Shown here in pieces: positions 1,428 through 43,345 of a DNA stretch of 64,000 nucleotides. Position numbers and translations under genes: made by a program. The DNA is from Minisyncoccota bacterium (lineage in GTDB: Bacteria; Patescibacteriota; Minisyncoccia; Phycocordibacterales; UBA9973). Within the stretch, counting starts at the first letter, position 1, and the number at the start of each line of letters is the position of its first letter. The notes under the pieces were generated by a model. That model was not told where the DNA came from, made no database searches, and saw only the letters and a program-made list of their open reading frames with translations. The stretch spans positions 2,032-66,031 of the forward strand of contig JBAYUN010000004.1 of NCBI GenBank assembly GCA_041675085.1. Reading direction: 5' to 3'.

Positions 1428-3389
1428 TTATTTATTCAAAATAACACGTGATTGAGGTCCTAGTATACCGTCAGCTTTTAGTCCGTTGTCCGCTTGGAAT
1501 TTCTTTAATGCTACTAGAGTATTGTAGCCAAATTGATTCACCTCTCTGCCCCCTTCTGTGCCAGATACGTTGTAACCTTTTTGATTAAGTTTTTGTTGCA
1601 AACATTTTACTTCATTTGAGTTCTTGCCTTTTAGTAAAGTCCTACTGATTGTACAAATATTTGAATTCTTAGAAATACTAGCTCCCAAGACTTGCCCTCC
1701 TACACATTCTGTACTCATTGAAGTTCTCGGGTAAGAACCAGTATTACCTGCTGCCTTCCAAGAGCTAATAGTTTCGGTCTTGTAGTCTCTAGTACTCGTA
1801 GCACTCGGATACCATTTTTGACAATAAGTTAATGGGTCGATATTGGCACCACTACTACCGTCTGGATCTGTTTGCCAAGTGCCAGATGAATCTGTATGTT
1901 GATTTACTTTACCATACCAAAATGAAATGCGTGGAGTTGTATCGACTGATGGAGTTGTAGGTTCTGCTGGGACCACAGGGTCAGGTGTGACAGGATCTGG
2001 AGTGACTGGGTCGGGAGTAGTCGGAGTTGTCGGTTCTGTTGGAGTGGTAGGTGTAGTTGGAGTCTCTACTGGTGTAGTAGGGGTGACTGGATTTACTGGT
2101 GTAACAGGATTTGTGCCTGGGTCTATGACCGGAGTCTCAGGATTTTCTCCTTTTTTATTGATAGTGAAAAAATCTTTTGAAAAATCTTCAGCTTTTTTAT
2201 CATAAGACTCTGGGCCTAGATGGATTTTAAAATTTTTACCAAATACTATGTCTGGGAAGGAGCCCACAGCTAGAGAAATTTTCTCTTCTCCATCATTCGG
2301 GGTACCCTTCACCAAAATAACAATATATTCTTTTTGATTATTTTTATATATTAAAGATATATTTATTTTTTTATCAGCTGAAGCTTTATTATTTTTCCAA
2401 GTTACTAAAATACTTTCATCTAGATTATAAACTTCTCCACCATTAGGTGAAGTAATTTTAAAGAAGTAAGAATTATTTTCATCTTCATCTATACCAGCTT
2501 GAATACATAAATAAGACAACTTTGTAGAAGTGTGATTATTAAAATTGTATCTCTCATGCCAAGTACTAATAGTCTCTAATTTGTATTCTTTGATGCCAAT
2601 AGTTTTTGGATACCATTTTTTACAATAAGTTAGATAATCTAAATTCGCACCAGAGATACCGTCGGGATCTGTTTCCCATTTACCATTGGTTGTATTAATA
2701 TGTTGATTTACTTTCCCCCACCAAAACATAACTCTAGGTAATAAATCATCACTACCTGGTTTGTCTTCTCCTTTCTTTTCTTCCACGATAGCATCATCTG
2801 ATTTTTTGTCTTCTGTTTTTACCTCTGTGGTTTTTGCCTCTTCTTTGACCTCGGTTTTCACTTCACTTACTACTTCTTTTTGAACTTCTTCTTTAGCTTC
2901 ATCTTTCTTCGATTCTGTTGCATTTTCTGAATTTTCTATTTTTTTATCTTCTTCTTTAATTTCTGTTTTTTCTACATCTTTGACTTCGTTGGACTGAGTC
3001 TCAGAAACAACACTTTCTTCTTTTTGGACTTCTTCTGTACAAGTTAATTTATTGATAGTCTCGCGAGTAAGTGGACCCACGAAGCCAGCAGAGACTAGAT
3101 TGTTGTCTCTTTGAAAAGTCCTAACAGCTCCTAAAGTCTGCTCTCCAAAGTATCCATTTGGTTCTGCTTTTAGATAACCTTTTTCTTTTAAGAAATTCTG
3201 CAACAACAAAACATCTCTTGTATTAGACGCTCTGTCAGAAGCACGATATCTCAAACTCTTATTAATAGAAACACAAACAGCAGAATTCTCTGTGTTTTGA
3301 ATTTGCTCTATTTCAGCATTTTGAGCAAAAGAAAAAATAGGGCTAATTATAAAAGTTAAAACCAATACAAGCTTTATGATTTTTTGCAT
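1428..3389 (-). CDS. Secreted cell-wall-associated protein: signal peptide, N- and C-terminal PG_binding_1 domains, Glu/Lys-rich and Pro/Thr-rich linkers, two copies of the YWWGKVNQH..LTYCKKWYP domain
   Basis: 653-aa ORF with PG-binding motifs (LQNFLKEKGY..FG..T..AV..FQ, and C-terminal VKCLQQKLNQKGY..DGILGP). The repeated modules are PRVMFWWGKVNQH.. and PRISFWYGKVNQH... Confidence 0.8.
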   Translation of the reverse strand: MQKIIKLVLVLTFIISPIFSFAQNAEIEQIQNTENSAVCVSINKSLRYRASDRASNTRDVLLLQNFLKEKGYLKAEPNGYFGEQTLGAVRTFQRDNNLVSAGFVGPLTRETINKLTCTEEVQKEESVVSETQSNEVKDVEKTEIKEEDKKIENSENATESKKDEAKEEVQKEVVSEVKTEVKEEAKTTEVKTEDKKSDDAIVEEKKGEDKPGSDDLLPRVMFWWGKVNQHINTTNGKWETDPDGISGANLDYLTYCKKWYPKTIGIKEYKLETISTWHERYNFNNHTSTKLSYLCIQAGIDEDENNSYFFKITSPNGGEVYNLDESILVTWKNNKASADKKINISLIYKNNQKEYIVILVKGTPNDGEEKISLAVGSFPDIVFGKNFKIHLGPESYDKKAEDFSKDFFTINKKGENPETPVIDPGTNPVTPVNPVTPTTPVETPTTPTTPTEPTTPTTPDPVTPDPVTPDPVVPAEPTTPSVDTTPRISFWYGKVNQHTDSSGTWQTDPDGSSGANIDPLTYCQKWYPSATSTRDYKTETISSWKAAGNTGSYPRTSMSTECVGGQVLGASISKNSNICTISRTLLKGKNSNEVKCLQQKLNQKGYNVSGTEGGREVNQFGYNTLVALKKFQADNGLKADGILGPQSRVILNK

Positions 3390-3409: not shown

Positions 3410-3991
3410 TTATATCTTTTTTAGTGTTTGTGTGGATAAGTCTTTTGCTTGGATTATGATTTTATGAGGAAAATCCAATATATCTCGGACTAGCTTGTCA
3501 TACATACTCAATCTGTATATAAATTCTTTGTATTCAAAGATAGCATAAGTGATCTCTATACCTATCTCAGCTTCGAGCTTCTTTACACCTTCTTCTATTT
3601 TAGATCTGCGCATCTTGTCCCCTACTATTAATAAGTCTATCCTAGAATCTTTATTTTTAATAAAAACACCAGAGACTAAAAGTAATTTTATCTTGCCAAC
3701 TTTTTTAAATAATAAAGGTATAGTATCAGTATTCAAACTATCAGAACTCACCAATAGAGATTCAAATTCTTTTTCATATTTAAAAGTAGAATTGAAATAA
3801 TATCCGGATTGACGCTTTTTAATAAAATCTACACTAGATAATAATTTTAATTCTTTACGAATTGCTGGTGCCTTAACTAGACTTCTTTTTTCGATTTCTT
3901 TGATATCAAATATCTTGCCTTTATTCAACAAGAAGAGTCTCATTATTTTTATACGAGCTGGGCTACCCAATAATTTACCAAGAATTTCCAT
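3410..3991 (-). CDS. Winged-helix (ArsR-like) putative transcriptional regulator; the ORF extends to 4042 but the likely start is the Met at 3991
   Basis: The N-terminus reads GSPARIKIMRLFLL.. as a winged helix-turn-helix. The product call is tentative. Confidence 0.45.
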   Translation of the reverse strand: MEILGKLLGSPARIKIMRLFLLNKGKIFDIKEIEKRSLVKAPAIRKELKLLSSVDFIKKRQSGYYFNSTFKYEKEFESLLVSSDSLNTDTIPLLFKKVGKIKLLLVSGVFIKNKDSRIDLLIVGDKMRRSKIEEGVKKLEAEIGIEITYAIFEYKEFIYRLSMYDKLVRDILDFPHKIIIQAKDLSTQTLKKI

Positions 3992-6505: not shown

Positions 6506-9500
6506 TTAAATTTTAATAAATCTTTTAATTAAGAAACTGCTCAATAATACTATAAATATAATAACATAAAAAGAAGTATTTTTATTTGTATTTTTTTCTT
6601 TTAAGACATCTACTGATTCCTTCGGGCTATCATCTGCAATCTCTTCTGCTTCTATCTGCACAGCACCTTCACTCTTATTTTCGATCAATACTTTTTCTTC
6701 TTTTTGTATTTTTATATCTTCACTCTGACTAGGTATTTCTGACTCGACTCCTAGAACTATACCGATACTTGGAGTAATATTTTCTGTTTTTGATACTAGC
6801 TCTTTTTTAGCTTCATTATCTTTATTTATCAATATCACTACTCCATGAGAAGACGGAGGAGTAATAGGCTCCGGCGTCGCCACCTTGGGATAAATTGTAT
6901 CTATCGTCCCATCACCGTCTGAATCCACCTTGAGTTCGGCTTTACTAACTTCAAAATCTTCTCCAATATAAAGATACGCCAAAGTCTTATCCGAGCTAGG
7001 TATCATTTCAAAATAATTCTCTTGTATTATATTGTTGCCCTCTTGCCTCTCGACGTCTAAAGTAAAACTACCTTCTTCATAGCCGTCTAATTGCAAAGTG
7101 TACGGAATACCTGCAGGCGCTGAGATGAATTGAACTGTGCCAATCATATCATAATTCACATTAGGTATTTCTTGCTTTATCTCTTTTGTGACGGGATCGA
7201 GTCCTGTATATCTACCCTCTTTATCAAAGATACCCAAGGTTAAAGGTGAGTGTAAGGTGAAATGAAGACGAGCATTACTTGCAACAAAATTCAAATTATC
7301 ATTTTTTAAAACAATCCCTTCGTTGTCAGTGAAAACTTTATCAGTAATTTGCGCCTGAATAAATTGTATTAAATTCTGAATTTCTAAAATATTTTTATGG
7401 TCTCTTCTGGGTCCAGGTAAACTGTTAAAAAGAGGCAAATTAATAACCCACTCCTCCACATTCTCACGATTTTCCATCCACAAAGCACTTGGAAAAGCTA
7501 CTGTCGAATCTCCATCGACCGATACTATCGGTTTATGCGAAACGTATTCTCTACCTAGTCCGAGGAGTTTGCGTTTGATTACATATTTTAATCCTACTTT
7601 TGTTTCTTCGCCCCAACCTGCAACTTCTATGATTTTAGTGTTTGGACTCGGTTGCCAATTGTCTATGACTCCATGAGTTAGTTCTGCTTGAGAATATAAA
7701 TACTCATTTACTATGTTTGGCTTGTCGGTATCACTGACGCTAGGTTTAGCACGCCCGTCACCACCCAAAACAAAATCTTTTAATTCTTCTTTTGTGTTGA
7801 TAGAGCTACCGTATTTAGATATTAAATTTTCTAATAAAGGATGATCTTGGAATGATAGAATTGGATTTTGATCTGTATCTACAGTATTAAAATATCCACT
7901 AGATGGAGCTAGGTTGTATATCGTCGGCATATTCTCTCCGAATTCCCGAGACCGCTCAGAAGGCATCAGTATACCAAAAGGCCCTAAAGGTACGCCATGG
8001 AGCATAGCGATAGTCGCCTCTGGTGTGCCGACTTGAGGCACAGCTATAAAAATTATTTTTTCTATTTGGTTGTAGAGTGGATCATTTGTATCTTTTAATT
8101 TCTGAACCAAGGCTTTGATAACGAGTCCTCCGGTACTGTGGGCTATAAGAGTGACTTTGCCTGTCCTAGAAGTTCTCTGTAATTCACGCAACTCACTCAC
8201 AATAAATGATTCAGAAAAATCGCCACTATTTAAATATGACAAATTCTCTCCGATAACTTTCCCGTTTATAATAATATCTTCTAAAGAAAGTCTCCAATCA
8301 TAAGGAATCAGAGCATAGTCTTCAATCAAACTCAATTCAGTATTTTTCAAATTTCTTAAATCCGCAATAAATGATTTATAAATATTCACAGTCAAAGCTT
8401 CGTCAATAACTCCGAGCTCTCCGCCGTCCCCTTCTACACTCTCAGTATCATTTTTTGTATAAACATTATTTTTACTTTTCCCAAATTCATCTAAGAACAT
8501 AAACTCTTGCAAAACTTTATGTGGTGAAACCCAAAGTTGTTGCTCTCCACAGAACATAGGATCCCTAGGCGTAACCGAACTACAATCAAAAACTTCACCA
8601 TACATTCTAGAACCTTGCACTCCCGGGAAAAACATAACATTAGAATTACAATTTTTTACACACTCTTCTACTGGTGGCCAGCTAGGTAGCCAAGGTTCAA
8701 AAAGGATATGTTCACTCACAGAGTCGCCAAGCCCATTAGGATTTAAATCCACATGATACGGCCCAGTAGCGTCACCCCAATAATTATTGTTAAAATCTAA
8801 ATCTACGTCTCTAAATGTAAAAGCTCCCGATAGAATATTGTTATGTATATTACTTTTATTTGCTGAGAATACTGAGTCGTAAACAACAAAACCATATAAG
8901 TTATCAGTGATCTCGCTATCAGTTATTTTTACAAAACTATCTCCAAAATTATTAAAAACAATAAACCCAGAATCCATAGCCCCAAAGACTTTTACTTTTT
9001 TAAAATTAGCCTGTACGTTGTTGAATAAAGACATACCATAAACACCACAATTCACAGACCCAGTATTAAAATCCACCGCAGAATTATTGTAAACAGAAAT
9101 CCCAGTATTATCACAAGATATCTCAGAATTCAACATATTAAGATGAGAATCATTATAAACTAAAAATCCACCACGACTACCACTTAGGCTCCCGTCTTTG
9201 AAATTCAAATTACTATTACCAAATACAGATATGCCAGAATTAGATTGATCAAGACTCAGGATATCTACATTAGTGAATGATGCTGAAGCATTATTATAAA
9301 TATTTACAATAGAATCTTGATTAAGACTCTCAACTTTAGAATTTTTTAATATTAAATTGCTGTAATCCTGGACTTCTATTTTTGCCTCGCCCGAGAAAAG
9401 AGAGTCATTTATCTCAACCATACTAGAGTCGTACAAATACAAACTCGTCGCTTTTAAATCTGCAAATTCTGAATTAGTTTCAAAAAATAAAATATCATTA

Positions 9501-10520: not shown

Positions 10521-10553
10521 CTGTGGATAACTATCCAAGGGCATCCCTTGGAT
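10521..10553 (+). repeat. REP element copy A (ctgtggataactatccaagggcatcccttggat); overlaps the 3' end / stop region of the RAYT gene
   Basis: Nested palindromes tggata-ac-tatcca and atccaaggg-cat-cccttggat. The element contains TGTGGATAA, the reverse complement of the DnaA-box consensus TTATCCACA. Confidence 0.85.
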
Positions 10554-11193
10554 GATTTAACCATTCGTCTATTTCTTTTAGAAAATCTTGCTTTGAAGTA
10601 AAATATTCTGGAAAAGCTTTTATGTTTAGAATCAACACTTCCCTTCTAGGTACTTCTAAAAAATCTAAATAGCTCGAGTTGCTGTAACTGTACAAATAAT
10701 CTTTAGTTTTAGATAAATCATTTATACCTTGCTCCTTCCAAGTTGGGTCAAAAATCTTTACAGGATTGAGGTGAATATACATAAAAATATATTTTAAATA
10801 TTCATCAGAATCTAAATGCTCGGCTCGGAACCTACCTTCAAACAATTTACCCGTCCTGTCGTACTTCTTGTTGAAATACATAGAATACGCAGTCGATAAT
10901 TTCTCCATAAAAATACTAATACCGTTTTCTTGTTTTTCTTTTAGCAATAAATGAAAATGATTTGGCATCAAACAATAACTGCCAATATCGACAAGAGTTT
11001 CGCCTCGTTCTATCTTGTCCAAGGGCACCCCTTGGATAGTTTTAAAGACAACTGGTTTCGAGCCATTGCATACAAATAAAAGCTTTATAAACCTCTTGTA
11101 GTCAAAATCATCCAAAAATATCAAGGATTTATTGTTTCCCCTATTGTAAACATGATAGTATTCGTTAATTGAAAAATTTATCTTTCTTTCCAT
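10531..11193 (-). CDS. tnpA_REP: REP-associated tyrosine transposase (RAYT, IS200/IS605-type Y1 HUH transposase)
   Basis: HUH motif (YCLMPNHFHLLL), the HVYNRGNN motif and conserved Tyr residues downstream. A degenerate REP lies inside the ORF (11027-11050). Confidence 0.8.
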   Translation of the reverse strand: MERKINFSINEYYHVYNRGNNKSLIFLDDFDYKRFIKLLFVCNGSKPVVFKTIQGVPLDKIERGETLVDIGSYCLMPNHFHLLLKEKQENGISIFMEKLSTAYSMYFNKKYDRTGKLFEGRFRAEHLDSDEYLKYIFMYIHLNPVKIFDPTWKEQGINDLSKTKDYLYSYSNSSYLDFLEVPRREVLILNIKAFPEYFTSKQDFLKEIDEWLNHPRDALG

Positions 11194-11223: not shown

Positions 11224-11247
11224 ATCCAAGGATTGACCTTGGATTTT
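11224..11247. repeat. Degenerate REP-like palindrome (atccaagg attgac cttggat)
   Basis: Same arms as the REP but a different loop. Confidence 0.5.
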
Positions 11248-11253
11248 ATGATT

Positions 11254-12000
11254 TTACAACTTATTTAATCTATCGATTTCTGTTTGGTAAACTGTTTTAT
11301 TTTGAGGATATACTTCTATCGCTTTATTCCAGACTGCTATCGCTTCGTTTTTCTGTCCATTATTTTCAGCTATGCGAGCAAAGTTGGTCATCAGGTTTAT
11401 CTTTGTTTTTGGATCAACTTTATTCATACCTTGATCGTACACTGCCTTTAAAACAGTAAAGCTCGCAGTAGTCTTTTCGTCCATAGCTACCAACTTGTAA
11501 ATCCAATAATCTGTGTAAGTCGGGTTGAGCTCTATCGCTTGGTCTATCATCTCGAGTGCTTTATTCCAATCCCCTTTGGCGCTATATGCAGAGAAAAGTC
11601 TCACATAAACTACATCGGATTTGCTATAAGTCAGAGCTTCATCAAAATAACTTATTGCTTTAGTGTAATCTTTATCATTAAAAGCAGTCGAACCATTAGC
11701 TAAAGCTGTATTGAATTTTGTTTTATTGGTATTTACTACTGGTTTTACTGTTGGGTCTGTCGCACTCGTATTAGTATTTTCTTCTACTTTTTCTGTTTCT
11801 GTAGTAGTGTTCTCATCTATTACCGTACTAGTATTATCTAAATCAATATTTTCTATATCTTCATCAATACCTTTCTTGTAATCCATGAGTCCAGCAATAA
11901 CCAATATGGCTATCATTGCTCCTATTATTATATAATTGATGTATTTTTTATTCATAGTATTAATTATATAGAAAAACAACAAAGAATCAATATTTACCAT
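11254..12000 (-). CDS. Membrane-anchored TPR-repeat protein (likely start at the Met at 11955)
   Basis: A TM segment is followed by TPR-like helical repeats. Confidence 0.6.
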   Translation of the reverse strand: MVNIDSLLFFYIINTMNKKYINYIIIGAMIAILVIAGLMDYKKGIDEDIENIDLDNTSTVIDENTTTETEKVEENTNTSATDPTVKPVVNTNKTKFNTALANGSTAFNDKDYTKAISYFDEALTYSKSDVVYVRLFSAYSAKGDWNKALEMIDQAIELNPTYTDYWIYKLVAMDEKTTASFTVLKAVYDQGMNKVDPKTKINLMTNFARIAENNGQKNEAIAVWNKAIEVYPQNKTVYQTEIDRLNKL

Positions 12001-12036
12001 TTATCCAAGGGATGCCCTTGGATAGTTATCCACAGG
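12001..12036 (-). repeat. REP copy D (reverse orientation)
   Basis: ttatccaagggatgcccttggatagttatccacagg. Confidence 0.85.
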
Positions 12037-12070
12037 TGGGCTTGGGTTGGTTTTTGGCTTAGTTTTTAGT

Positions 12071-13528
12071 TTAGTTTACTGAACTTAGCATCTTTTCTTT
12101 GGTTTTTGGACCTATTAGTCCGTCAGCAGTCAATCCATTATCCTTTTGCCATTGCTTGATAACTGCTATCGTCTTTGGTCCTAATTTACCGTCAACTACT
12201 AGACCTAGGTTTAAAACTTGATTCAAGAATCTTTGCAATTCTTTTACAGCTTCACCCTTGCTGCCATTTTTCAAGATAGTGTTTCCAAAATTGTATTTAA
12301 TTATCGGAGTTGCAGATAGAGTGCCAGTATTCACTACGCAAGACTTACCCGTAGTAGTACTAAAGCCAGTTGTTCTATTATCGCAACCTGGTATAACATT
12401 GTCGGCTACTGTAATACTGATACTAATAGGTACGATAATTTCAGAACCATTAGTAGAAATAGGAGTTACAGTCAAAGTCGGAGTCGCAGACACAACTAGA
12501 GGAGCAGGAGCAGGACTTCCACTTCCTCCACTATGCACCACAGCCACATAATCAAAAGTCGCTACTGGAGAAGTGTTATCAAAAAGATCACAACCTACGG
12601 CTTTGACTGTAGTCGAAGCTGTAACATTGAAAGGATTTGCTGTGAGGCCTGTAGTACAAGTCGGAGTCGAGCCATCTACAGTATAATGAATATCAGTAGA
12701 ACCAGTTGAAGATAAAGTCAGAGCTTGAGATGTGAGGTTTACTAAAATCATATTTGTAACGCTCGAAGTCGGAGTGCTTGGGATCTGACGATCAGATACG
12801 TCTTGGTTTTGAGTTGAAGCATTTGAATTTGCAAAAGGTGAAATATCGCGAACTGCATCAAGAGCTATATCTAAACCTGCTCCAGACCAAAAGTCAGGAT
12901 TAAGCAAAGGTTGAGTTGTAAGATTCACAATAGAAGCATCAGTACCATCGACAGCTGCGGCTGTTATCACTACACCATTAGCGGTCAAATCGAAATCAGA
13001 CCCATTAGCTTCTTGAACCGCTACATCTTCAGAAAAAGTAACTGCTATGTTTGTATTACTTGTGGCACTAGCAGAAACAAAAACAGGATTCTGATCATCG
13101 TTCACAGCCAGAGAAGCTCCATGAGCCACAACTTCATTCGTATCTCCGTTGGTGTCAGTTACAGCCAAAGCATCTACATACAATCCATGACTAGCGTCGT
13201 AAGCAGTAGCTGTATCAGAGAAAGGAGTACCTGCGAAAGTTAGAGTCGCTACCCAAGGGTTACCTGGAGTAGTAATAACAGCTGAGACAGGAGTCAGAGG
13301 GCTCACTCCCCCAGTATTCACGTCTATGTGGAATTTAGAGAAATCGATAGAAGCCAAGTTGTGTCCTGGATTATTAAAATAAACCTGAATAGTATTAGAG
13401 GAAACAATATTTCCTCCAGCTGTACCGATATCGGCAGCGGCATTCGCTTTTAGACTAAAAGAGTAAACAAAGACAAAAACCAAACTCGTCACCAATAAAG
13501 ACAAACTCAACTTTTTTATGATTTGCAT
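12071..13528 (-). CDS. Secreted surface protein with Ig-like/beta-rich repeats and a C-terminal PG_binding_1 domain
   Basis: Signal peptide, with the C-terminus GSKGEAVKELQRFLNQ..DGKLGPKT..IKQWQ. Confidence 0.7.
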   Translation of the reverse strand: MQIIKKLSLSLLVTSLVFVFVYSFSLKANAAADIGTAGGNIVSSNTIQVYFNNPGHNLASIDFSKFHIDVNTGGVSPLTPVSAVITTPGNPWVATLTFAGTPFSDTATAYDASHGLYVDALAVTDTNGDTNEVVAHGASLAVNDDQNPVFVSASATSNTNIAVTFSEDVAVQEANGSDFDLTANGVVITAAAVDGTDASIVNLTTQPLLNPDFWSGAGLDIALDAVRDISPFANSNASTQNQDVSDRQIPSTPTSSVTNMILVNLTSQALTLSSTGSTDIHYTVDGSTPTCTTGLTANPFNVTASTTVKAVGCDLFDNTSPVATFDYVAVVHSGGSGSPAPAPLVVSATPTLTVTPISTNGSEIIVPISISITVADNVIPGCDNRTTGFSTTTGKSCVVNTGTLSATPIIKYNFGNTILKNGSKGEAVKELQRFLNQVLNLGLVVDGKLGPKTIAVIKQWQKDNGLTADGLIGPKTKEKMLSSVN

Positions 13529-13589
13529 ATTAATTTATTTAGAAAACAATTTTAAATTTAATAATAGAAACAAATAACTAAATTAATTA

Positions 13590-13630
13590 TAACACAAACA
13601 AAAAGCTAAATCATAAATTTATGATTTAGC
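13590..13630. terminator. Bidirectional terminator (14-bp perfect palindrome agctaaatcataaa/tttatgatttagct flanked by A- and T-runs)
   Basis: Seen directly in the sequence. Confidence 0.55.
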
Positions 13631-13643
13631 TTTTTGTTCTACC

Positions 13644-13676
13644 CTGTGGATAATTATCCAAGGGCATCCCTTGGAT
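13644..13676 (+). repeat. REP copy E, followed by the gggaaggtc-aga-ccttccc hairpin (13680-13705)
   Basis: ctgtggataattatccaagggcatcccttggat. Confidence 0.85.
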
Positions 13677-13713
13677 TTTGGGAAGGTCAGACCTTCCCTT
13701 TTTTAAGATTAAA

Positions 13714-13956
13714 TTATTCAGTGTAAAAAATATTGTTTATCTCTTCAAGAGTTAGGAATGGTTTCAAAGCTCTGATTATAGCTTTCTGTGTTCCCCTATC
13801 TAATTCGTCATGATTTGGTATTGAGATATTTTGAGTTTCGTTTATATTAACACGACTTAATCTTATATGACTTCCTTTTTGCCTAACAACAACAAAACCA
13901 AGCGCTTCTAATTCTTTAATAATTTCTTTACCTGAAAGTCTTTTAAGATTAGGCAT
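13714..13956 (-). CDS. hicA: HicA-family mRNA-interferase toxin
   Basis: GSHIRL.. and IPNHDELDRGTQKAIIRAL match the HicA/YcfA fold signature. The gene overlaps hicB by 8 nt. Confidence 0.7.
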   Translation of the reverse strand: MPNLKRLSGKEIIKELEALGFVVVRQKGSHIRLSRVNINETQNISIPNHDELDRGTQKAIIRALKPFLTLEEINNIFYTE

Positions 13957-14170
13957 ATATCATATCTGCTAAATCAAAATTAATCATAACAGGATGAGAA
14001 ATATTATCCTTTTGATCAACTTCTTCGAAATACAAATCTGTAGCTTCTTTTATATTACTTACAAGCTCCTCAAAGGTTTTACCTTGAGTTACTATCGCAT
14101 AGTCATTTGCAGAGCCGACATAATAGCCGTCTTCTCCTTTTTCTATTTTAAATAATACTATTTTTGACAT
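13949..14170 (-). CDS. hicB: HicB-family antitoxin (short, UPF0150 domain only)
   Basis: YYVGSANDYAIVTQGKTFEELVSNIKEA motif, lying upstream of and overlapping hicA. Confidence 0.6.
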   Translation of the reverse strand: MSKIVLFKIEKGEDGYYVGSANDYAIVTQGKTFEELVSNIKEATDLYFEEVDQKDNISHPVMINFDLADMIYA

Positions 14171-14236
14171 ATTTATATTATATCACAAAATGTTAGAAAA
14201 GATAGGTTTTATTTTATAAAGGGTCTAAAAAAGGAG

Positions 14237-14269
14237 CTGTGGATAACTATCCAAGGGCATCCCTTGGAT
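14237..14269 (+). repeat. REP copy F
   Basis: Identical 33-mer. Confidence 0.85.
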
Positions 14270-14280
14270 GTGGCAAATAC

Positions 14281-14604
14281 TTATTTTTGTTTTTTCTTTT
14301 CTAATAAGTACACACGAGAAGCTAGTTCGTCAAACATACGATGAGTAACAAATTTATCACCTAGATCCAACATATCTCTACGAGTTGCTTTAACATTTTC
14401 GTCTATTTGTTTTACTTTTTCATCTAAAGCATCAAACTTAGAATCTATGCCATCGAATTTAGCATCTATAGCATCAAATTTAGAATCTATACGTTCAAAT
14501 CCCTTAGCAGTCATAATAGCTAAGTTGTTTACAGTTTCTGAAAGATTGTTAACAGTACCTGCTAAATCTTCGATAGTCATTTTCTTTTTTACGACTTTCT
14601 TCAT
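14281..14604 (-). CDS. Small coiled-coil protein with 8-aa tandem repeats (SKFDAIDAKFDGIDSKFDALD)
   Basis: 107-aa ORF with about 24-bp periodicity in the DNA at roughly 14425-14500. Confidence 0.6.
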   Translation of the reverse strand: MKKVVKKKMTIEDLAGTVNNLSETVNNLAIMTAKGFERIDSKFDAIDAKFDGIDSKFDALDEKVKQIDENVKATRRDMLDLGDKFVTHRMFDELASRVYLLEKKKQK

Positions 14605-14610
14605 TCTTTA

Positions 14611-14640
14611 ATTATATCACACAAGAATTTTGTGATGCAA
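14611..14640 (-). promoter_or_regulatory. Sigma70-like promoter TTGCAT-N18-TATAAT only 6 nt upstream of the ATG, which predicts a leaderless transcript
   Basis: The minus-strand read is ttgcatcacaaaattcttgtgtgatataattaaagaATG. The sequence is identical at 16459-16488. Confidence 0.5.
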
Positions 14641-14925
14641 TCTGTATTTATAAAGGGTCTAAAAAAGGAGCTGTGGATAACTATCCAAGGGCATCCCTTG
14701 GATTGGGAGTTTTGGATTTTGGGAAGGTCGGACCTTCCCAGATTTTGGTTTCTTGGTCTTGGGTAGGTCTGACCTCCCCTTTTTAAAATACAAATTGGAA
14801 CGCAAAAAGCCCTCGCTTTCGCGAGGGCTTTTTGCTGCTTTTTACGGCATCCCCTAAAAGTTTTCTTCTTTATTATTTCTTATTTATAAGATTGCATTAT
14901 TCTTTTAGTTGAGTCAAACTTACAA
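14611..14925 (-). repeat. Composite intergenic cassette, unit 1: promoter + REP copy G (14670-14702) + gggaaggtc hairpins + conserved terminator (14803-14843) + AT-rich tail
   Basis: Long stretches are shared with the units at 15735-15955 and 16456-16732. Confidence 0.7.
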
Positions 14926-15025
14926 ATTATTTTAAAGTTATCCACAATTATTTGCTTTTATTTTTAAAAAAATATATAATATAAGTGTTATTCAAAAAAG
15001 CCACCTGCAAAGGGGGCTTTTTTAT

Positions 15026-15649
15026 TTATATGGATACTACTGGTATTTCTTTCTTTATATTTTCTTTAATATCCAAAAGAGACATATAAAATACTTTATC
15101 TTTCTTTTCACTAACCAAAGCTCGTAGTTTAGTTGAATACACAGCAACAGTAAGCCCAGACTTGATGTCTCGACCAGCATAAGAAACTATTGTAACTTTT
15201 GTAACTCCTTTTTCAAGAGCCTTTCTTATAACATATTCAAAATCTCCATCCCCTGTAAAAATCAACAACTCAACGTCAGGAGCAGATTTATCAATAACAT
15301 CAACCGCCAGTTCCACATCACAATTAGCTTTCTTGCGATATCCCATATTTATAATTTGAATATTATCTTTCAAGCACCCAGAACATTTAAAAGCTATAAT
15401 TTTATCTTTATTTTTGTAAGAAAAAATTGATTTACTTTTAACGATACAACAAGGAGTTTTATTTAATAGATCAAATTCTTTTGCTGTTTCTATATCACCA
15501 TTATCGATACCTGTATAAAAAAGAACCTCAGAACAAGATTTTTTATTTTTTAAAAAGTCAGCTACTTTCATCCAGTCAACAACAAAGTCTAACATTTTTT
15601 CAGTTGTACTTGCTGTATTTTGAACATCCACAAAAGCATATCTTTTCAT
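15026..15649 (-). CDS. NYN-domain (LabA-like) putative RNase; the ORF extends to 15697 but the likely start is MKRYAFVDVQN
   Basis: The acidic residues FVDVQN.., DVELAVDVID and LIFTGDGDFEYVI are typical of PF01936. Confidence 0.65.
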   Translation of the reverse strand: MKRYAFVDVQNTASTTEKMLDFVVDWMKVADFLKNKKSCSEVLFYTGIDNGDIETAKEFDLLNKTPCCIVKSKSIFSYKNKDKIIAFKCSGCLKDNIQIINMGYRKKANCDVELAVDVIDKSAPDVELLIFTGDGDFEYVIRKALEKGVTKVTIVSYAGRDIKSGLTVAVYSTKLRALVSEKKDKVFYMSLLDIKENIKKEIPVVSI

Positions 15650-15734
15650 AAATAAAATTATACTATATTTTTTTCCTTCATTCAATACGATAAACATAAG
15701 CTGGATTTATGAAAGTTAATACATACAATCTGTT

Positions 15735-15955
15735 TTAAAACTAGGCTGTGGATAACTATCCAAGGGCATCCCTTGGATACGGGGTTTTGGTGAGTAGTGG
15801 GTAGTGGATATTGAGATTGGAACCCCAGTCAGTCGCGACTGACTGGGCAAGAACGCAAAAAGCCCTCGCTTTCGCGAGGGCTTTTTACTGCTTTTTGCGG
15901 CATCCCCTAAAAGTTTTCTTCTTTCTTATTTCTAAGATTGAATTATTCTTTTAGT
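15735..15955 (-). repeat. Composite cassette, unit 2: REP copy H (15746-15778) + 22-bp perfect palindrome ccagtcagtcgcgactgactgg (15825-15846) + terminator hairpin (15862-15881)
   Basis: Sequence identity with units 1 and 3 across aacgcaaaaagccctcgctttcgcgagggctttttgctgcttttt..attgaattattcttttagtt. Confidence 0.7.
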
Positions 15956-15963
15956 TCGAGATT

Positions 15964-16452
15964 TTAACTTAGAACTTTTTCTTCTAGGATTTCTATTCTT
16001 CTATCGTGATTATTTACAGTATCAGACATATCATCAAATTTTTCATTTAACTCTTTGAAGTTTTCTCTAGTTTCTATTTTAAATGATTTTAAATCTGTTT
16101 CAAGATTATTAAAATGAGTATTAGTTTCAAGTTTAAAAAGATTCAGATTAGTTTCTAAGCCATCAACTTTATCAGTTAGCTTAGAGACACTAATTGCAAC
16201 AGTTTCAACTAATTGAGTAAGGCTTCCTAGATCACTTTTTATATCAACTATGTCATTCTTAACACCAGCCATATCTCCTTTAAGACCACCTATGTCATTT
16301 TTAATGTCGAGCAAGTCTTCCTTGGTGGCGAAAGACTTTAGGTCTTCTTTGGTAGCGAAAGACTTTAGATCTTCTTTAGTGGCAAGATTTTCAAGATCTT
16401 TTTTGGTTAAGAATATTGAAGCTAATTTTTGTATGTCTTGATCTGTTAACAT
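15964..16452 (-). CDS. Coiled-coil tandem-repeat protein (LKSFATKEDL x3, 27-bp DNA repeats 16315-16395)
   Basis: 162-aa ORF; paralogous to 63119..63604 through the ATKEDL repeats, and shares its promoter with 14281..14604. Confidence 0.6.
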   Translation of the reverse strand: MLTDQDIQKLASIFLTKKDLENLATKEDLKSFATKEDLKSFATKEDLLDIKNDIGGLKGDMAGVKNDIVDIKSDLGSLTQLVETVAISVSKLTDKVDGLETNLNLFKLETNTHFNNLETDLKSFKIETRENFKELNEKFDDMSDTVNNHDRRIEILEEKVLS

Positions 16453-16455
16453 TCT

Positions 16456-16732
16456 TTAATTATATCACACAAGAATTTTGTGATGCAATCTGTATTTATA
16501 AAGGGTCTAAAAATGAACCTGTGGATAACTATCCAAGGGCATCCCTTGGATTTATGGTTTTGGGTTTTGGGGAGATCAGACCTTCCCTTTTCTTTTTTTT
16601 CCTTTTTTAAAATACAAATTGGAACGCAAAAAGCCCTCGCTTTCGCGGGGGCTTTTTGCTGCTTTTTACGGCATCCCTTAAAAGTTTTCTTCTTTCTTAT
16701 TTCTAAGATTGAATTATTCTTTTAGTTCAAAA
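16456..16732 (-). repeat. Composite cassette, unit 3: promoter (16459-16488) + REP copy I (16519-16551) + hairpin + terminator (16633-16652)
   Basis: As for units 1 and 2. Confidence 0.7.
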
Positions 16733-19700
16733 CTATGATTGTACAGTTTGAGAAATTGGAAGATTTTTAACTCCGTATTCTCCTGTCCAGTCATTAGTTG
16801 TTGTTGAGTGTCCTGAAGCTGAAACGTCAGACCAAATGATTGTTACATCAGAGTCAGCAGTTTCTACATCAGCTGCACTATCTGAAGCTGCGTAAGCAGC
16901 ATCACCAGCAAGCTTTGTAACTACGTAGTCAACATCAATGTCAACAGAAGCAGCAGTCATACGTAATTCGTATGTCTTTGTTCCTGAAACTTGTTGTACA
17001 GCTGTAGCATCGAACTCTATAGTTCCTGAAGTGTTTGTAGCACCTACAGTTGTAAGAGTATCAGTACCAGCAACTTCTGCGTTAGCAGTAACATCCCATA
17101 GTACAGCGTTAGTTAATACTGGGTCAGCAGTCTTTGAAACTTCAAAGAACAATCTTGACCATTCAATAGTACCACCGTTTGAAGTGATAGTGAATCTTGA
17201 AAGCACGTTTTCACCTGCTTTTAATTTATCACCACTCAAAGCAACAGCTGTAATAGTTGGAGTTGCAGCGTAAGCATACATTGCATTTCCAGCTGGACCA
17301 TTTTCTAATGCTTCACAAGTTGAGTTTCCACAACCTGCATCGTTAGCTGAAGCATCTGAAGTACCAGTTGAAGTATTTGTAGCTGTGAAAGTTGATAGAG
17401 TTACAAGTTGTGAAGAACCTGTATCACCTGCACCAATTCCAACAGAACCTAATACTAATTTAACAGTCAACACTTTGTTTTGGTTAGCTGGAACATTCCA
17501 GTTAAGACCATTGAAAGTAACTGGACTAGCACCTGGTTTTGAAGCAATCAAAGTAGCACCGTCGTAAAGTTCTACACTTTGTGCCACAGTAGTATTACCT
17601 AATGTGAAAGTAAGATCTGTTACGTTGTATCCAGCAGTAATTGCAGCGAATTTGAATGCAGCAGCAGTAACTGTTTGATTGTCATGGACAATCGCAGCAA
17701 CTGGAGTTGAAGCATCTGTAGTAGCTGTAATTGAAGCTGTACCTGCTGTAATTGTTTGACCAGTTGTAACAGCTGGGGCAACCGCAGTTCCTGAAACACT
17801 AGCTGTACCTGTCAAAGTTAAGTCTATGTCAAAGTCAGTACCTACTGTTGCAGCAGAACCAAGATTTGCATAAAGCTCAATTGACATATTTGTATTCTTA
17901 ACCAATGTGTGATTGATTGAGAAAGCATTTCCTGTAGCACTAACTGTAGCTAAAGGAGAAGGTTGTGAAACAATGTTTCCTGCTGCATCTTTAACAACAA
18001 TATACATGTTTGTTAAATCATCAGCAATATCAAAGTCGTCAGCAGAACCTCCTTCATCAAATGAAACTGTTGTTAAAAGAACATCTTCTACTGAAGAACC
18101 TGCAACGTTCCAAGAACCGATTTTGAAACCAGTAGCTGGAAGAGAAACAGATTGGTTAGCATAAGTTGCGTTCTTTGTAAGACTAACAGTTGCTGAAGCA
18201 ACAGTTAATGTATTACCATTAACAGCTGTACCAGGAGCATTGAATGATCCTAGAGAATCAACTTTTTGAGCGTTTGATGAACCAATAGCGATAACACCAA
18301 TTATAGTATCACCAGCTGTAAGGTCGTTTGTACCGTCATTGTCAAACATATCTGCATGTAAGTCCATAAGTACTGGTGTACCTGGGTTTACAGTGTAATT
18401 CAATGTGTATTGTGTATAAGCAGGTGTTGAAGAGTCTTCCATCAAAGTTGATGTAGAACCGTATTGAACACCACCTATAACGATACGTCCATTTCTTAAT
18501 GAATCTACAGCGTTATCAGAAGTTGTGAATGAAGCACGGATATTTTCGATCTTGATAGGTTCACCGTAAGCTGTAACTTTGTAAGTAGCGATTTTAACAT
18601 CGTTACCAGCTAAAGTTGCGTTTGTTGAAGAAGATGAAACATCTTTTTCAATGATTAATGAACCTCCACCTTGACCTGAAATTGTACTTTCAGTAGCAGG
18701 AGCCCATGGTAATGGATCAGTTGTTACACCACCTACAACACCAGGAACAATGTTAACTCCGAAAGATGAATCTACGAAATCAACATCAGCTGCACTTCTC
18801 AAAGAGAAATGAACTGTTCTTGAAGCACCAGATACGATATCAGCATCAACACGTACTACACGTGTTCCTGATTGTAGCATTACTGGAGTTGAAGTCATGT
18901 CAAAAGTAACATAACCGTTAACATCTACACCAGCAGCTGTCGCAACTTGAACTCCATTTACATAAAGTTTAAAGCCACCGAAAGCATTAGCTGGAGCTGA
19001 TCCAACATTTCTGAAAGCTACTCTTTTCATCCAAACATCTCTTTGTGAGATATTTAAACTTGATTGCCACACTGTTACGTTTGCACCTGGGTTAAGAGTT
19101 GCATTTGTAGGTGTTTCTATTCCAGAAGTAACGCCAGCTAATGTAGCATTAGCTATTGAATGAATGTTACCTGAAAGGTTAACAGTTGAAGTTGTGCCTC
19201 CAGCTGTAACTGTTGCAAGCATCATACCTACAGTTTGACCTGAAGTATTAGCAGCAATGTCAGACTTTACAGAAATAGTTTTTGTACCGTTAACTGTGAA
19301 GATTCCTGAAGGAACGTTGAATGTAACTGTACCGTTGTTTGAAACTGAAGCTGCATCTGTCAAACGTGTAGCACCGTCAAATAGGTAAACGTTTGAAGGA
19401 GTAGCGTCAGCTGAAACTCCGATTCTTTGTAAAGTAACAGCAGTAACTGTGCCTGATCCACTGAAAGTGAAGTTAGCTAAGTTAGCTGTAGCTTGTCCTG
19501 CAACAAGAGTAGATGAAGCTGGATTGTTTGAAGACAATGCAACTGTAACTGGTCCTGTTTGTGAAGTTGAACCTGAACATGGTTGTCCAGTTGTAGAACT
19601 GAATCCTGATGTTGATGAACAACCTGCTGGAAGAGTTGTACTAACTCCTGTAGAACAAGATACTCCTGTGATAGGAGAGAATCCTGCTGATGATGTACAT

Positions 19701-20046
19701 CCTGCTGGATAGTTACCTCCTGTTGAAGTTGTACCTGTCCATGAAGCTCTTGAAGCTGGTCCAAAGATACCGTCTGCTGTTAATCCCTTACTAGCTTGGT
19801 AAGCTTGTACGGCTGTTTTGGTTTTAGAACCGAAGTAGTTTGTTTCACTACCTACTGATCCTGCACCTGAAGTTGAAACAACGAATCCTTTTGAGTTAAG
19901 ACCTTGTTGAAGTTCTTTAACTTGACTGTTGTTTGAACCTAGTTTTAGTGTTGAAGTGATAGCAGCTGAAGCTGTTCCTGTTGAAAGGATAACTGCAGCA
20001 GCAACCATCAAACCTAAAACGAATTTTGATTTGAATAAATTACTCA
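16733..20046 (-). CDS. Giant Ser/Thr/Ala/Gly-rich secreted surface protein with an N-terminal PG_binding_1 domain (S-layer- or adhesin-like); the ORF reaches 20113 but the likely start is MSNLFKSKF at 20046
   Basis: A signal peptide and LKLGSNNSQVKELQQGLNSKGF..FG..T..AV..YQ..KGLTADG are followed by about 1000 aa of low-complexity beta-rich sequence. Confidence 0.7.
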
Positions 20047-20640
20047 TATTTTTTTTAATTACGCCATTAATAAGTTTCGACAAAACTAAAAGCGTATTTT
20101 CTATCGTCCTCATCCCTACTTAATTAATAAATAATAATAATGCGTAGTGACTTGCGAGGACAAAAAGATTTGAACTAAACTTGAAAACATAACTAAAGAC
20201 ATTTGCAATTGTGATGCAAACATTTTTATTGTATTAAGTTTTCAATGACCTTTCTTTTACCGAATCTTTGCAATAAATTTATTTTACTAAACTTAAAACA
20301 AAGACAGGCTTTGATCCTTTGTGTACTAAATCTTTTCGACGAAATTTAGCAACAAGATCTTATACTATATATAAGTATGAGAATAAGACTTTCGTAAAAT
20401 TCTTCACACTAATAATATATACGTATACATTATAATATAGACTCTCGAATAAGAGCAATATTACAACGTGTGGATAACCGATAATTTCGCATAAGAAAAA
20501 TAAATTCTTCGCTAGTTACTCCACCTATCTATATTGGCATATTTTTGACATAAAAGCAAACACAAATTAGGTTCTAGTCGCTAGGTTCTAGGTTCTAGGA
20601 AAATGCAAAAATGCAAAAAACAAAGAAAGGTTATTAGAGA

Positions 20641-21564: not shown

Positions 21565-21606
21565 GTGTCCATTATATATTTCTCTCGGACTTTTGCAAGC
21601 CCGAGA

Positions 21607-21715
21607 TTAGGTTCTAGTTTCTAGTTACTAGGGGCTAGGTTCTAAAATTAGTTTCTAGTTTCTAGTTGATAGGTTCTAGAAAGCAAACAACTAAACACTA
21701 GCACCTAGAAACTAA
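21607..21715. repeat. Array of CTAG-containing direct repeats (taggttctag / tagtttctag) phased at about 10-11 bp; shorter arrays at 20568-20599 and 26041-26068
   Basis: At least seven TTCTAG cores within 75 bp, in the divergent region between the winged-helix gene and ftsK. Confidence 0.6.
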
Positions 21716-21741
21716 TACCTAATCTATGCTAAAATATATCA

Positions 21742-26032: not shown

Positions 26033-26083
26033 GAATTTGGTACTAGTTTCTAGTGACTAGGTTATAGGTTTAAATACAACAAT

Positions 26084-26120
26084 AAAAAAGCCCTCAGCCT
26101 AAGGCTGAGGGCTTTTTTAT
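26084..26120. terminator. Bidirectional terminator between convergent efp and rpsR (gccctcagcc taa ggctgagggc)
   Basis: Perfect 10-bp stem with A- and T-runs. Confidence 0.65.
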
Positions 26121-41018: not shown

Positions 41019-41117
41019 ATATTTAATTGTTTTATTATGAAATTAAAAAACTTGTCTAATTTAATAGAAACATAATTTTTATAAAATGTCAATAATAAAA
41101 GATTCAGTTAACGATTG

Positions 41118-41191
41118 TCCGTCCTCATGGATTCGAACCATGGACCCCAGAGGTATAAGCTCTGTGCTCTAACCAACTGAGCTAAGGACGG
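41118..41191 (-). tRNA. tRNA with anticodon UAU (reads AUA), i.e. tRNA-Ile(UAU)
   Basis: Manual cloverleaf: acceptor CCGTCCT/AGGACGG, D-arm GCTC-AGTTGGTTA-GAGC, anticodon stem CAGAG/CTCTG with loop CTTATAC, T-arm CATGG-TTCGAAT-CCATG, discriminator A. Confidence 0.65.
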
Positions 41192-43141: not shown

Positions 43142-43345
43142 AGACTATATAATAACATAAAATTTGAGAAAATTAAAGGATAAAAAACCGACTTTTAAAT
43201 GTTGGGTTTTGGGTAGAGTTTTGTGATACTCCGCTCGTTTGTACTCGCGGAGTCCTACAAAAATATAATTCTTTTTTGGTTTTGTGGCGCCGTATGATTA
43301 CATACGGCATCCTACAAAAATATAGTCGCTATGCTCCTTATTTTT

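Follow-up and report, generated by a model that had tools for sequence, protein, structure and literature searches.

Repetitive extragenic palindromes (REPs) and the REP-associated tyrosine transposases (RAYTs) have, to our knowledge, been studied almost solely in Proteobacteria, and the function of these systems is still debated. Here, we describe a RAYT-type gene together with its cognate 33-nt REPs in a stretch of 64,000 nucleotides of contig JBAYUN010000004.1 from a Minisyncoccota bacterium of the Patescibacteria; this whole stretch is called the window below. The closest described systems are the REPtrons of Proteobacteria, exemplified by E. coli TnpA-REP (4ER8) and by the Pseudomonas RAYTs with their REPINs (Nunvar 2010, PMC2817692; Quentin 2018, PMC6006769). 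The locus resembles them in that a single Y1 HUH gene is bracketed by inverted short palindromes, one of which sits at the stop codon, in that the hairpin co-varies with the enzyme subfamily, in its best structural match, which is 4ER8 itself, and in the clustering of the copies near the gene. It differs from them in its patescibacterial host, in a tail of 11-12 nt that is a consensus DnaA box instead of a GTAG/CGTC tag, in a cognate hairpin that lies inside the open reading frame (ORF), and in a RAYT that scores below the NCBIfam cut-off. In addition, there are only 9 copies in the 64-kb window, all within 6 kb, and they are found upstream of promoters, not at operon 3' ends. A second point of comparison is the bacterial interspersed mosaic element (BIME), into which RAYT 3' ends have been reported to be incorporated (Nunvar 2010, PMC2817692). 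As in BIMEs, the REPs of the window join other conserved motifs in composite intergenic elements that duplicate, but here the composite consists of a terminator, an unrelated GGGAAGG hairpin, a REP, and a promoter, mostly in one orientation, and there are no alternating REPs.

The REP comprises a hairpin with a 9-bp stem and a 3-nt loop (ATCCAAGGG-ATG-CCCTTGGAT), followed by the conserved flank AGTTATCCACAG; this tail is also written TTATCCACAG and reads CTGTGGATAACT on the opposite strand. Neither a GTAG nor a CGTC tetranucleotide is present at the hairpin foot. The hairpin folds as single-stranded DNA at -8.6 kcal/mol (z = -3.2). When ATCCAAGGGCATCCCTTGGAT was searched for with up to three mismatches, 9 places were found in the 64 kb as compared to 0 in 100 shuffles, and all of them fall at 10.5-16.6 kb, within 6 kb of the RAYT gene, with none elsewhere in the window. 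The full 33 nt are common to seven copies, and the two further copies are degenerate. Copy 1 (10521..10553, minus strand) encodes with its hairpin the C-terminus of the RAYT, HPRDALG*, and carries its box 32 nt upstream of the TATAAT of an LCAT-like gene. The degenerate hairpins, also on the minus strand, lie inside the RAYT ORF (11017..11037), where the encoded peptide IQGVPLD forms the loop preceding the HUH motif, and upstream of the RAYT start (11224..11244); two of the nine places overlap the RAYT ORF. Copy 2 (12003..12035, plus strand) is the sole inverted copy, and it is also inverted in L101, the closest relative that we found (RAYT 93% identical, flanks 78-91% identical at the nucleotide level). 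Copies 1 and 2 bracket the RAYT gene and that of a tetratricopeptide repeat (TPR) protein, with their tails facing outward. The remaining copies are all on the minus strand. Copy 3 (13644..13676), with the tail AATTATCCACAG, is preceded by a GGGAAGGTCTGACCTTCCC hairpin at 13680-13698, and copy 4 (14237..14269) is followed by a promoter module whose homologues are found at cc107 and cc162, our labels for two coiled-coil proteins. Copy 5 (14671..14703) belongs to a composite of a module called D3 (14798-14904), two GGGAGG hairpins, the REP, and a promoter; copy 6 (15746..15778) lies upstream of a gene for a NYN-domain protein and is preceded by a second D3 (15851-15957), and copy 7 (16519..16551) is preceded by a third D3 (16622-16728) and a hairpin (16569-16587).

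These surroundings are themselves repeated. D3 is a 107-nt module that ends in a 15-bp bidirectional terminator and occurs three times, the GGGAAGGTCNGACCTTCCC hairpin has four copies, and a 138-nt REP-plus-promoter module, D2, also occurs three times, being 92% identical between cc107 and cc162 and 63% identical to these at hicB. Because the D2 and D3 modules are repeated, part of the REP multiplicity is accounted for by segmental duplication of a composite of ∼250 nt (terminator, hairpin, REP, and promoter). In 100 related loci, the D3 module and the GGGAAGG hairpin were found only as this genome's own copies; L101, which lies outside those 100, has the terminator core in common, as well as a hairpin of the GGGAGG type. 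An apparent resemblance of 26086-26117 to a metagenomic contig, L094 (JGI Ga0172380_10000160), was set aside as merely a similar terminator hairpin. The same contig carries at 2484-2517 an exact 34-nt REP, hairpin and box included. It lies in frame in ligA (NAD-dependent DNA ligase), where VDNYPRASLG, the peptide that it encodes, is part of a variable loop, and the contig has nothing else in common with the window. To judge from this exact REP, hairpin and box travel together. It was also observed that independent assemblies of NYN and RAYT homologues often break right at the REP/terminator module (for example, L002, a 971-bp Logan contig from SRR6484325, and many homologue contigs of ∼1 kb), consistent with these sequences being repeated in the source genomes.

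The RAYT-type gene (10531..11193, minus strand), the only one in the window, encodes 220 aa that match Pfam Y1_Tnp at 6.5e-9 (36.4 bits against a cut-off of 23). The HUH motif is H79-F-H81 and the catalytic tyrosine is found in Y139-IHLNP, and both motifs are invariant in 30 homologues. An AlphaFold2 model (pLDDT 72.5) has as its best Foldseek match 4er8_A, E. coli TnpA-REP bound to a REP (E 2.4e-4, prob 1.00), followed by the IS608, ISDra2, and IS200 transposases at ranks 2-28. By its sequence, the protein is a divergent member of the RAYT family. Related proteins are numerous in Patescibacteria, 7,692 of 8,000 scored candidates reaching E <= 1e-10, and they are annotated only as "transposase"; our full-text literature search returned no relevant paper that joins RAYT terms and Patescibacteria. 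Y1 subclass 2.1 has been reported with a helix-turn-helix (HTH) resembling DnaA domain IV (PMC6006769). We looked for such an HTH in the C-terminus of the RAYT and discarded the idea, as there was no Pfam hit and no such fold match.

The link between enzyme and hairpin becomes apparent when RAYT loci are compared. A RAYT homologue stands in the same position in 10 ftsK loci of relatives, and we compared 11 RAYT loci in all, drawn from the window, the ftsK loci, and L101, L105, and L108 (L056, L065, and L076 have no readable layout and were left out). Each of the 11 has its own palindrome, examples being AAAAAGGAC-G-GTCCTTTTT, TAGACGT-TCG-ACGTCTA, ATTCGGACGT-CCA-ACGTCCGAAT, and TATCCAAGGG-TTA-CCCTTGGATA. 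In every one (11/11), the palindrome is present at or overlapping the RAYT stop codon and again upstream of the gene, and the inverted flanking arrangement seen in the window, 10521-10553 (-) and 12003-12035 (+), recurs in 11/11 related loci. Seven of the 11 carry the palindrome inside the ORF as well, at nt ∼156-178, in the loop preceding the HUH motif, and the encoded peptide varies with the hairpin. The hairpin therefore co-varies with the enzyme subfamily, as expected of a RAYT and its REP. A perfect TTATCCACA or TTTTCCACA (TTWTCCACA) follows the hairpin by 2-6 nt in 6/11 loci, often with a trailing G or GG, and the hairpin flank in L014, L025, and L030 is TTTTCCACAGG. Neither the in-ORF hairpin copy nor the long tail was found described in the literature. 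We also note that L101 has at 7425-7475 a second, unrelated REP family beside the first, with the hairpin TTCCGGACGT-CCA-ACGTCCGGAA and the tag CTGTGTAAAAC; it is close to the L025/L023 type, so that two hairpin families coexist in one genome.

The REP tail contains, as a sequence match, the consensus DnaA-box motif TTATCCACA, and each such box is a predicted DnaA-binding site. Exact matches number 12 in the window against 0.67 expected, with 9 of them within 10.5-20.5 kb. Seven occur solely as REP tails, and the five outside REPs (at 1410, 3431, 14938, 20469, and 44773) are each upstream of a TATAAT. In 43 of 45 relatives a box is found upstream of the leader of a large peptidoglycan (PG)-binding protein gene in the arrangement TTATCCACA-N7-TTGC(-35)-N17-TATAAT; the gap between box and -35 is 7 nt in most relatives and 9 nt at the corresponding gene of the window, whose product we call PG1126. 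Three PG_binding_1 genes of the window have an upstream box. In 1.4 Mb of related loci, intergenic DNA, 13% of the sequence, holds 60% of the boxes, and 63 of 76 are directed towards a gene start. The REPs are placed between a terminator and a promoter, oriented towards the downstream gene in 6 of 7 cases, and REP-linked boxes are mostly 50-85 nt from the -10 as compared to the canonical 30-31 nt. The REPs at RAYT termini are near-canonical with respect to the promoter of the downstream gene, the distance from box to -10 being 32 nt in both the window and L101, and L014 reads box-N7-TTGCTT-N17-TAAAAT. We infer that the REP tail may originally have been a promoter box, belonging to the gene that lies downstream of the RAYT, and may later have joined the mobilised unit.

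The genomic setting was examined by comparing the 80 ftsK loci of relatives and, for the backbone, 45 loci with full upstream sequence. The FtsK relatives at 63-75% identity all come from metagenome-assembled genomes of Candidatus Nomurabacteria, Paceibacterota, or Patescibacteria. The backbone in the 45 loci runs from rplJ-rplL through a slot to a large PG_binding_1 protein, orf307, ftsK, orf116, recA, and efp, and the core orf307-ftsK-orf116-recA-efp is kept in 67-81 of 82 loci. The number of genes in the slot, which lies between rplJL and the PG protein, ranges from 0 (L016, L036) to 10 (the window). Among the 80 loci, the RAYT was met 10 times, the TPR protein 6 times, which makes it a recurrent resident, HicA 3 times, HicB once, a cc162-like protein 3 times, a cc107-like protein once, and the NYN protein never. 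The PG protein adjoins orf307 in 42/45 loci, with a length of 620-1400 aa and 28-71% identity; because its position is conserved, PG1126 is not accessory, though it evolves fast. In two loci (L038 and L064), a homologue of a different secreted PG protein of the window, the 653-aa product of 1428-3389, stands where PG1126 would be. The first-pass annotation had described an accessory island at 12.1-20.0 kb, variable between genomes and partitioned by REPs. The synteny comparison bears out the variability, with slot gene content differing between conserved flanks, and one REP copy does separate each pair of transcription units. The proposed bounds have to be moved: the variable slot spans ∼5.2-16.7 kb, and the segment at 16.7-20.0 kb is the position-conserved PG1126.

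L101 gives the closest view of how the slot changes. Its gene order is PG protein, terminator, inverted REP composite, cc107 orthologue (86 aa), inverted REP, TPR, RAYT, REP, LCAT-like gene, orf134, and rplJL. It is without the segment that corresponds to window positions 12044-14280 (REP-hicBA-REP and the gene of an Ig-like PG-binding protein, IgPG485), and the junction coincides with the end of the cc107 stop codon, the inverted REP following after 8 nt. It is also without ∼14630-16730, which in the window holds cc162, the NYN gene, and the triplicated D3/REP modules. At the intergenic site between the PG gene and cc107, the composite of REP and GGGAGG hairpin is inverted relative to the window. 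The differences between the two genomes fall in REP-bearing intergenic regions, with one extra REP per extra unit.

We read the RAYT-type gene with its cognate hairpins, their co-variation, the REP-associated differences and inversion, the REP within a foreign gene, and the module duplication as traces of a hypervariable slot with a resident RAYT, in which units are gained, lost, and inverted through the RAYT and through recombination, much like a cassette array; we put the probability of this reading at roughly 60%. By this account, the slot at ∼5.2-16.7 kb, lying between the conserved blocks rplJ-rplL and PG gene-orf307-ftsK-recA-efp, would house the RAYT and its REPs. The enzyme would recognise the REP hairpin as single-stranded DNA and would cleave and join single-stranded REPs, as 4ER8-type enzymes do. 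Its action, together with recombination between the repeated modules, could then lead to the gain, loss, and inversion of units, and the lineage-wide NYN/LabA-type nuclease would have landed in the slot as cargo. We infer that REP/RAYT activity may have assembled the array. Several observations weigh against this account. The two ends of the 2.2-kb indel carry REPs in different orientations, one direct and one inverted, unlike the outcome of simple direct-repeat recombination, and the sequences compared contain no excision junctions, no circles, and no empty/filled-site pair with a clean REP-to-REP boundary. All REP copies are local, at least three of them spread within a larger duplicated module and not as 33-nt units, and a scan of JGI metagenomes gave the exact REP just once. 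As to the enzyme, the NCBIfam model REP_Tyr_transpos (NF047646) matches at 7.5e-11 but reaches 42.1 bits against a cut-off of 80, and sequence searches of the PDB with both the protein and the family profile returned no transposase.

The genes of the region fall into nine units, all on the minus strand, and their listing in the first-pass annotation is borne out by ORF calls and Pfam, except that the RAYT and TPR genes, which it placed within 12071-20046, both lie outside that range. The TPR protein (11254..11955; the ORF extends to 12000, with 11955 being the start given by the gene caller) has an N-terminal transmembrane helix. IgPG485 (12071..13528) is a secreted protein of 485 aa with Fn3_assoc/CHB_HEX_C (Ig-like) domains and a C-terminal PG_binding_1. 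The product of hicA (13714-13956), 80 aa, matches PF07927 at 2.9e-16 and has the GSH motif as GSHIRL in its translation. The 73-aa HicB (13949-14170) is a short form with weak yet concordant matches (Pfam 0.0096; PDB 2yzt TTHA1756, 0.0019; PHROG HicB-like, 3.6e-4); it matches the N-terminal fold only, without a ribbon-helix-helix (RHH) or HTH DNA-binding domain. The overlap between hicB and hicA is exactly 8 nt, as had been stated, and HicBA is predicted to be a type II toxin-antitoxin (TA) pair; HicA/HicB-like pairs recur in the slot of L065, L021, and L073. The small coiled-coil proteins are encoded at 14281..14604 (cc107) and 15964..16452 (cc162, with ATKEDLKSF repeats) and belong to a heterogeneous patescibacterial family of 90-200 aa (336 hits). 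PG1126 (16733..20047; ORF to 20113) is a large secreted protein with an N-terminal PG_binding_1; its Ser and Thr content of 25% agrees with the earlier description as S/T-rich. Its start is most likely ATG 20047, given the MSNLFKSKF N-terminus that is conserved in the relatives' sequences. Each unit carries its own TATAAT promoter. REPs and strong terminators had been said to bound each unit. A REP copy is indeed present between every pair of units, but PG1126 has none upstream, only a bare 9-mer box (20469-20477). Likewise, the bidirectional terminators at the three D3 copies and a terminator of the NYN gene's own are in place, but the T-run of the GGGAAGGTCNGACCTTCCC hairpins is on the opposite strand and cc107 and hicA are without a canonical terminator.

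The NYN/LabA-like nuclease (15026..15649, minus strand, 207 aa) matches Pfam at 8e-9. We corrected its start from 15697 to ATG 15649, in line with an identical 207-aa database entry and ∼140 homologues of ∼200-210 aa. The protein belongs to a conserved family of Paceibacterota, ∼205 aa in length, for which the search gave 143 hits, the best 120 listed being 43-77% identical; D8, N11, D111, D117, D134, D136, and four Cys residues are invariant or nearly so. In six other genomes the gene is found next to signal peptidase and Pth, DUF2177 and a peptidyl-prolyl isomerase, SmpB and Cas1, IS1595, PrgI and TraC, or an inositol phosphatase. No coiled-coil gene is beside it in those six, and no partner gene is conserved across the seven NYN loci. 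Conversely, coiled-coil homologues occur elsewhere without NYN, downstream of rplJL and a mechanosensitive (MS)-channel gene, and adjoining a long non-coding stretch that is likely the 23S gene. The promoters of the genes that flank NYN had been called identical; the REP-promoter module of the two is near-identical, as given above, and the proteins are barely alike (30% over 46 aa).

A promoter convergent with NYN was noticed at 14938..15030 (plus strand), with a box TTATCCACA at 14938-46, a -35 TTGCTT at 14952-57, and a -10 TATAAT at 14975-80, so that NYN is bracketed by inverted boxes (15747-55 and 14938-46). A sigma-70-type promoter (TTGnnn-N15-18-TAnnnT) is kept downstream of NYN in 7/7 loci (window, L083, L086, L088, L095, L097, and L099) at 46-100% NYN identity, and it is the sole conserved neighbour of the gene. 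A TTATCCACA box is found 1-5 nt upstream of its -35 in 4/7 of these loci, in either orientation. The promoter fires into the NYN terminator, for which reason a candidate RNA of ∼40 nt is predicted; it would have a 5' segment ..AUUC(R)AAA or CCUUAGAA, followed by a hairpin with conserved GCCAC/GUGGC and then a U-run. This RNA could be a 3'-overlapping antisense regulator.

The most substantial alternative to REP/RAYT-driven assembly is that the host itself uses the 33-nt elements as regulatory or structural modules, their spread being due only to segmental duplication and ordinary recombination, with the Y1 protein an inactive or domesticated bystander and the slot a product of the gene flux that is generic in the candidate phyla radiation (CPR). 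Several observations suit it: the bare box is deeply conserved upstream of promoters, at the fixed 7-nt distance from the -35 in those 43 relatives and before three PG_binding_1 genes of the window, the boxes are enriched in intergenic DNA and aim at gene starts, the REPs mostly face a downstream gene from between terminator and promoter, and D2 and D3 show that modules do duplicate. It sits poorly with the hairpins, which differ by RAYT subfamily yet match those at and inside each RAYT gene, a signature of enzyme-site co-evolution, and with REP-linked boxes that do not keep the canonical distance to the -10. The identical hairpin and box inside ligA of an otherwise unrelated contig and the inverted composite in L101 also speak against it, and we consider it possible but unlikely. 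A bolder reading gives both the enzyme and the box a role: this RAYT clade would use hairpins tagged with a DnaA box and so spread a host regulatory or DnaA-binding site, or would take box-flanked DNA as its substrate. On that reading, an integron-like array of self-promoted units would have been built, box-ended units such as NYN would have been captured, and the in-ORF hairpin would possibly be self-regulatory. We hold this to be doubtful; if true, accessory genes would here be organised and co-regulated by a domesticated HUH enzyme, which would be novel. A quite different use of the same boxes is to see nine perfect copies in 10 kb as a DnaA-titrating or origin-related locus (datA/DARS- or Bacillus-like) in which the hairpins are incidental. 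The excess of exact boxes over expectation, the 7 boxes in 19 kb of L101, the divergence of genes at 21.6 kb, and a local minimum of the cumulative GC skew at ∼16-20 kb would all fit. The skew, however, follows gene orientation and is negative again after 27 kb, neither dnaA nor dnaN is among the annotated ORFs, an AT-rich unwinding element was not recognised, seven boxes occur only as REP tails, and the number of boxes tracks that of cargo genes instead of being conserved. We regard such a locus as very unlikely, and a replication origin was rejected as the principal explanation on the ground that the GC skew tracks gene strand only.

The remaining alternatives concern the cargo. The region had been labelled a surface and defence island, with NYN and its neighbours as a possible toxin-like module, and one may picture NYN and the flanking coiled-coil genes, with or without HicAB, as an anti-phage system. 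The catalytic Asp residues of NYN are intact, HicA has a bona fide toxin domain, the genes flanking NYN share a promoter module, and PADLOC gives a NYN match (6.4e-6), which covers only a core of 49 residues. Against this, the NYN homologues are solitary in their six different housekeeping neighbourhoods and near none of the 80 relatives' ftsK loci, coiled-coil homologues live without NYN by rplJL and the 23S gene, L101 keeps cc107 in the absence of NYN, and the remaining PADLOC matches are coiled-coil noise (E > 1e-3). Neither the module nor the defence label is supported, and of all the explanations considered here this is the one to which we give least credence. The cargo genes are of ordinary kinds, and an annotation of the region as a defence island should be avoided. 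Horizontal acquisition of the island from a phage, plasmid, or integrative and conjugative element (ICE) is nearly as improbable. Phages often carry HicA and HicB families and PG_binding_1 resembles the cell-wall-binding domains of endolysins, but the search for signs of a foreign island found no integrase domain (Pfam), no tRNA nearby, and no phage structural gene (PHROGs). The small genes have a GC content of 0.29-0.32 that matches the genome, higher GC being confined to the surface proteins rich in Ser, Thr, Ala, and Gly, searches of viral contigs for the REP and for NYN were empty, and all cargo families are native to Patescibacteria. A phage or plasmid origin was rejected, as PHROGs returned only TA families and endolysin matches to the PG-binding domain.

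Several observations concern the flank of the slot. The promoter and leader of PG1126 lie at 20045..20477 (minus strand), with the box at 20469-77, 9 nt, a -35 TTGCTC, a -10 TATAAT, and a leader of 380 nt. We compared this leader (20045-20424) with its equivalents in 51 related loci; leader lengths are in the range of 280-480 nt. A four-helix structure, in which GUCGAAACU and UUAAUGGCGUA are invariant, is conserved over the final ∼135 nt. The 27 pairs are 96.7% paired, 11 of them with compensatory changes; double-change cells number 40 as compared to 11 in shuffles (0/500 reach it), and slid controls pair at 37-59%. No Rfam match was found for the leader at E <= 5. The leader is a candidate for a new cis-regulatory RNA of Nomurabacteria surface-protein genes. 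The gene of the third secreted PG protein (653 aa, two PG_binding_1 and an APP_N-like domain; 1428-3389, minus strand) has its box at 3431-3439, 29 nt upstream of its TATAAT. Further, CTAG-rich repeat arrays (TAGAACC / GGTTCTAG / TAGTTTCTAG) are present at 20564-20601, 21604-21725, and 26040-26070. They lie on both sides of orf307, occupy the intergenic region between the divergent orf307 and ftsK genes, and appear once more just past efp; in this way they delimit the orf307-ftsK-orf116-recA-efp block. The orf307 product has a weak C-terminal match resembling a winged helix-turn-helix (PADLOC SoFic, 4.4e-4) and may bind these arrays.

The window, whose GC content is ∼0.33, is also present in reverse complement in a 529-kb metagenomic contig, ENA ERZ27247358 k141_557398, at ∼40.7-104.7 kb. 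The RNA features of the window (41117-41191, 43344-43746, 44105-44548, and 1-175, all on the minus strand) include the genes for tRNA-Ile (anticodon TAT), for tmRNA, which adjoins smpB, and the 5' end of 23S rRNA at the window edge. The 23S gene is not in an rRNA operon and is placed downstream of rplJL and the MS-channel gene. Rfam searches of 13.5-21.8 kb, both at the gathering score and at E <= 5, gave no meaningful match, only sub-threshold ones of the terminator-like leader-peptide kind.

These findings extend RAYT/REP systems in three respects, the patescibacterial host, the DnaA-box tail, and the in-ORF hairpin. The large RAYT-like family of Patescibacteria has cognate hairpins at the stop codon, upstream, and often in the ORF, in several of its subfamilies the hairpin is joined to a perfect DnaA-box motif, and the same motif is in that lineage also a deeply conserved element upstream of promoters. 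If the enzyme is active on the REPs, it would provide a tractable example of how, in minimal-genome organisms, a domesticated HUH enzyme shapes a hypervariable locus of surface-protein and accessory genes, with mobile hairpins linked to host DnaA or promoter recognition.

Beyond REPtrons and BIMEs, the components of the locus can each be placed next to a known system. The HicBA pair is like other type II HicAB systems in the GSH motif of HicA, in a small upstream partner that is weakly HicB/UPF0150-like, and in the 8-nt overlap of the ORFs; it differs in a HicB of 73 aa without an RHH or HTH DNA-binding domain. The nuclease shares with LabA/DUF88 NYN proteins (PF01936; PDB 2qip) the NYN core and the conserved Asp residues, but its family is specific to Patescibacteria, the members are ∼205 aa long and share an invariant 4-Cys cluster, and a convergent promoter is conserved at the 3' end of the gene. 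Clusters of DnaA boxes outside oriC, such as datA/DARS in E. coli and the DnaA-box clusters (DBCs) of B. subtilis, likewise have several consensus TTATCCACA within a few kb; here, in contrast, the predicted boxes form the tails of a palindrome that is mobile. With IS200/IS605 elements (IS608, ISDra2), the locus has in common the Y1 HUH fold, subterminal hairpins, and cleavage sites a few nt outside the hairpin, but there is no TnpB, the gene is not obviously a mobile unit, and the flanking hairpins are identical and inverted instead of forming distinct left and right ends. Integron cassette arrays (IntI and attC) resemble the slot in their one-directional small units, each with an imperfect palindrome used as folded single-stranded DNA, in the position of the enzyme gene at one end, and in the frequency of TA pairs among the cargo. 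They differ in that the enzyme here is of the HUH/Y1 type and not a tyrosine recombinase, that the units have their own promoters, and that there is no attI or Pc, and the likeness to integrons is meant as an analogy only.

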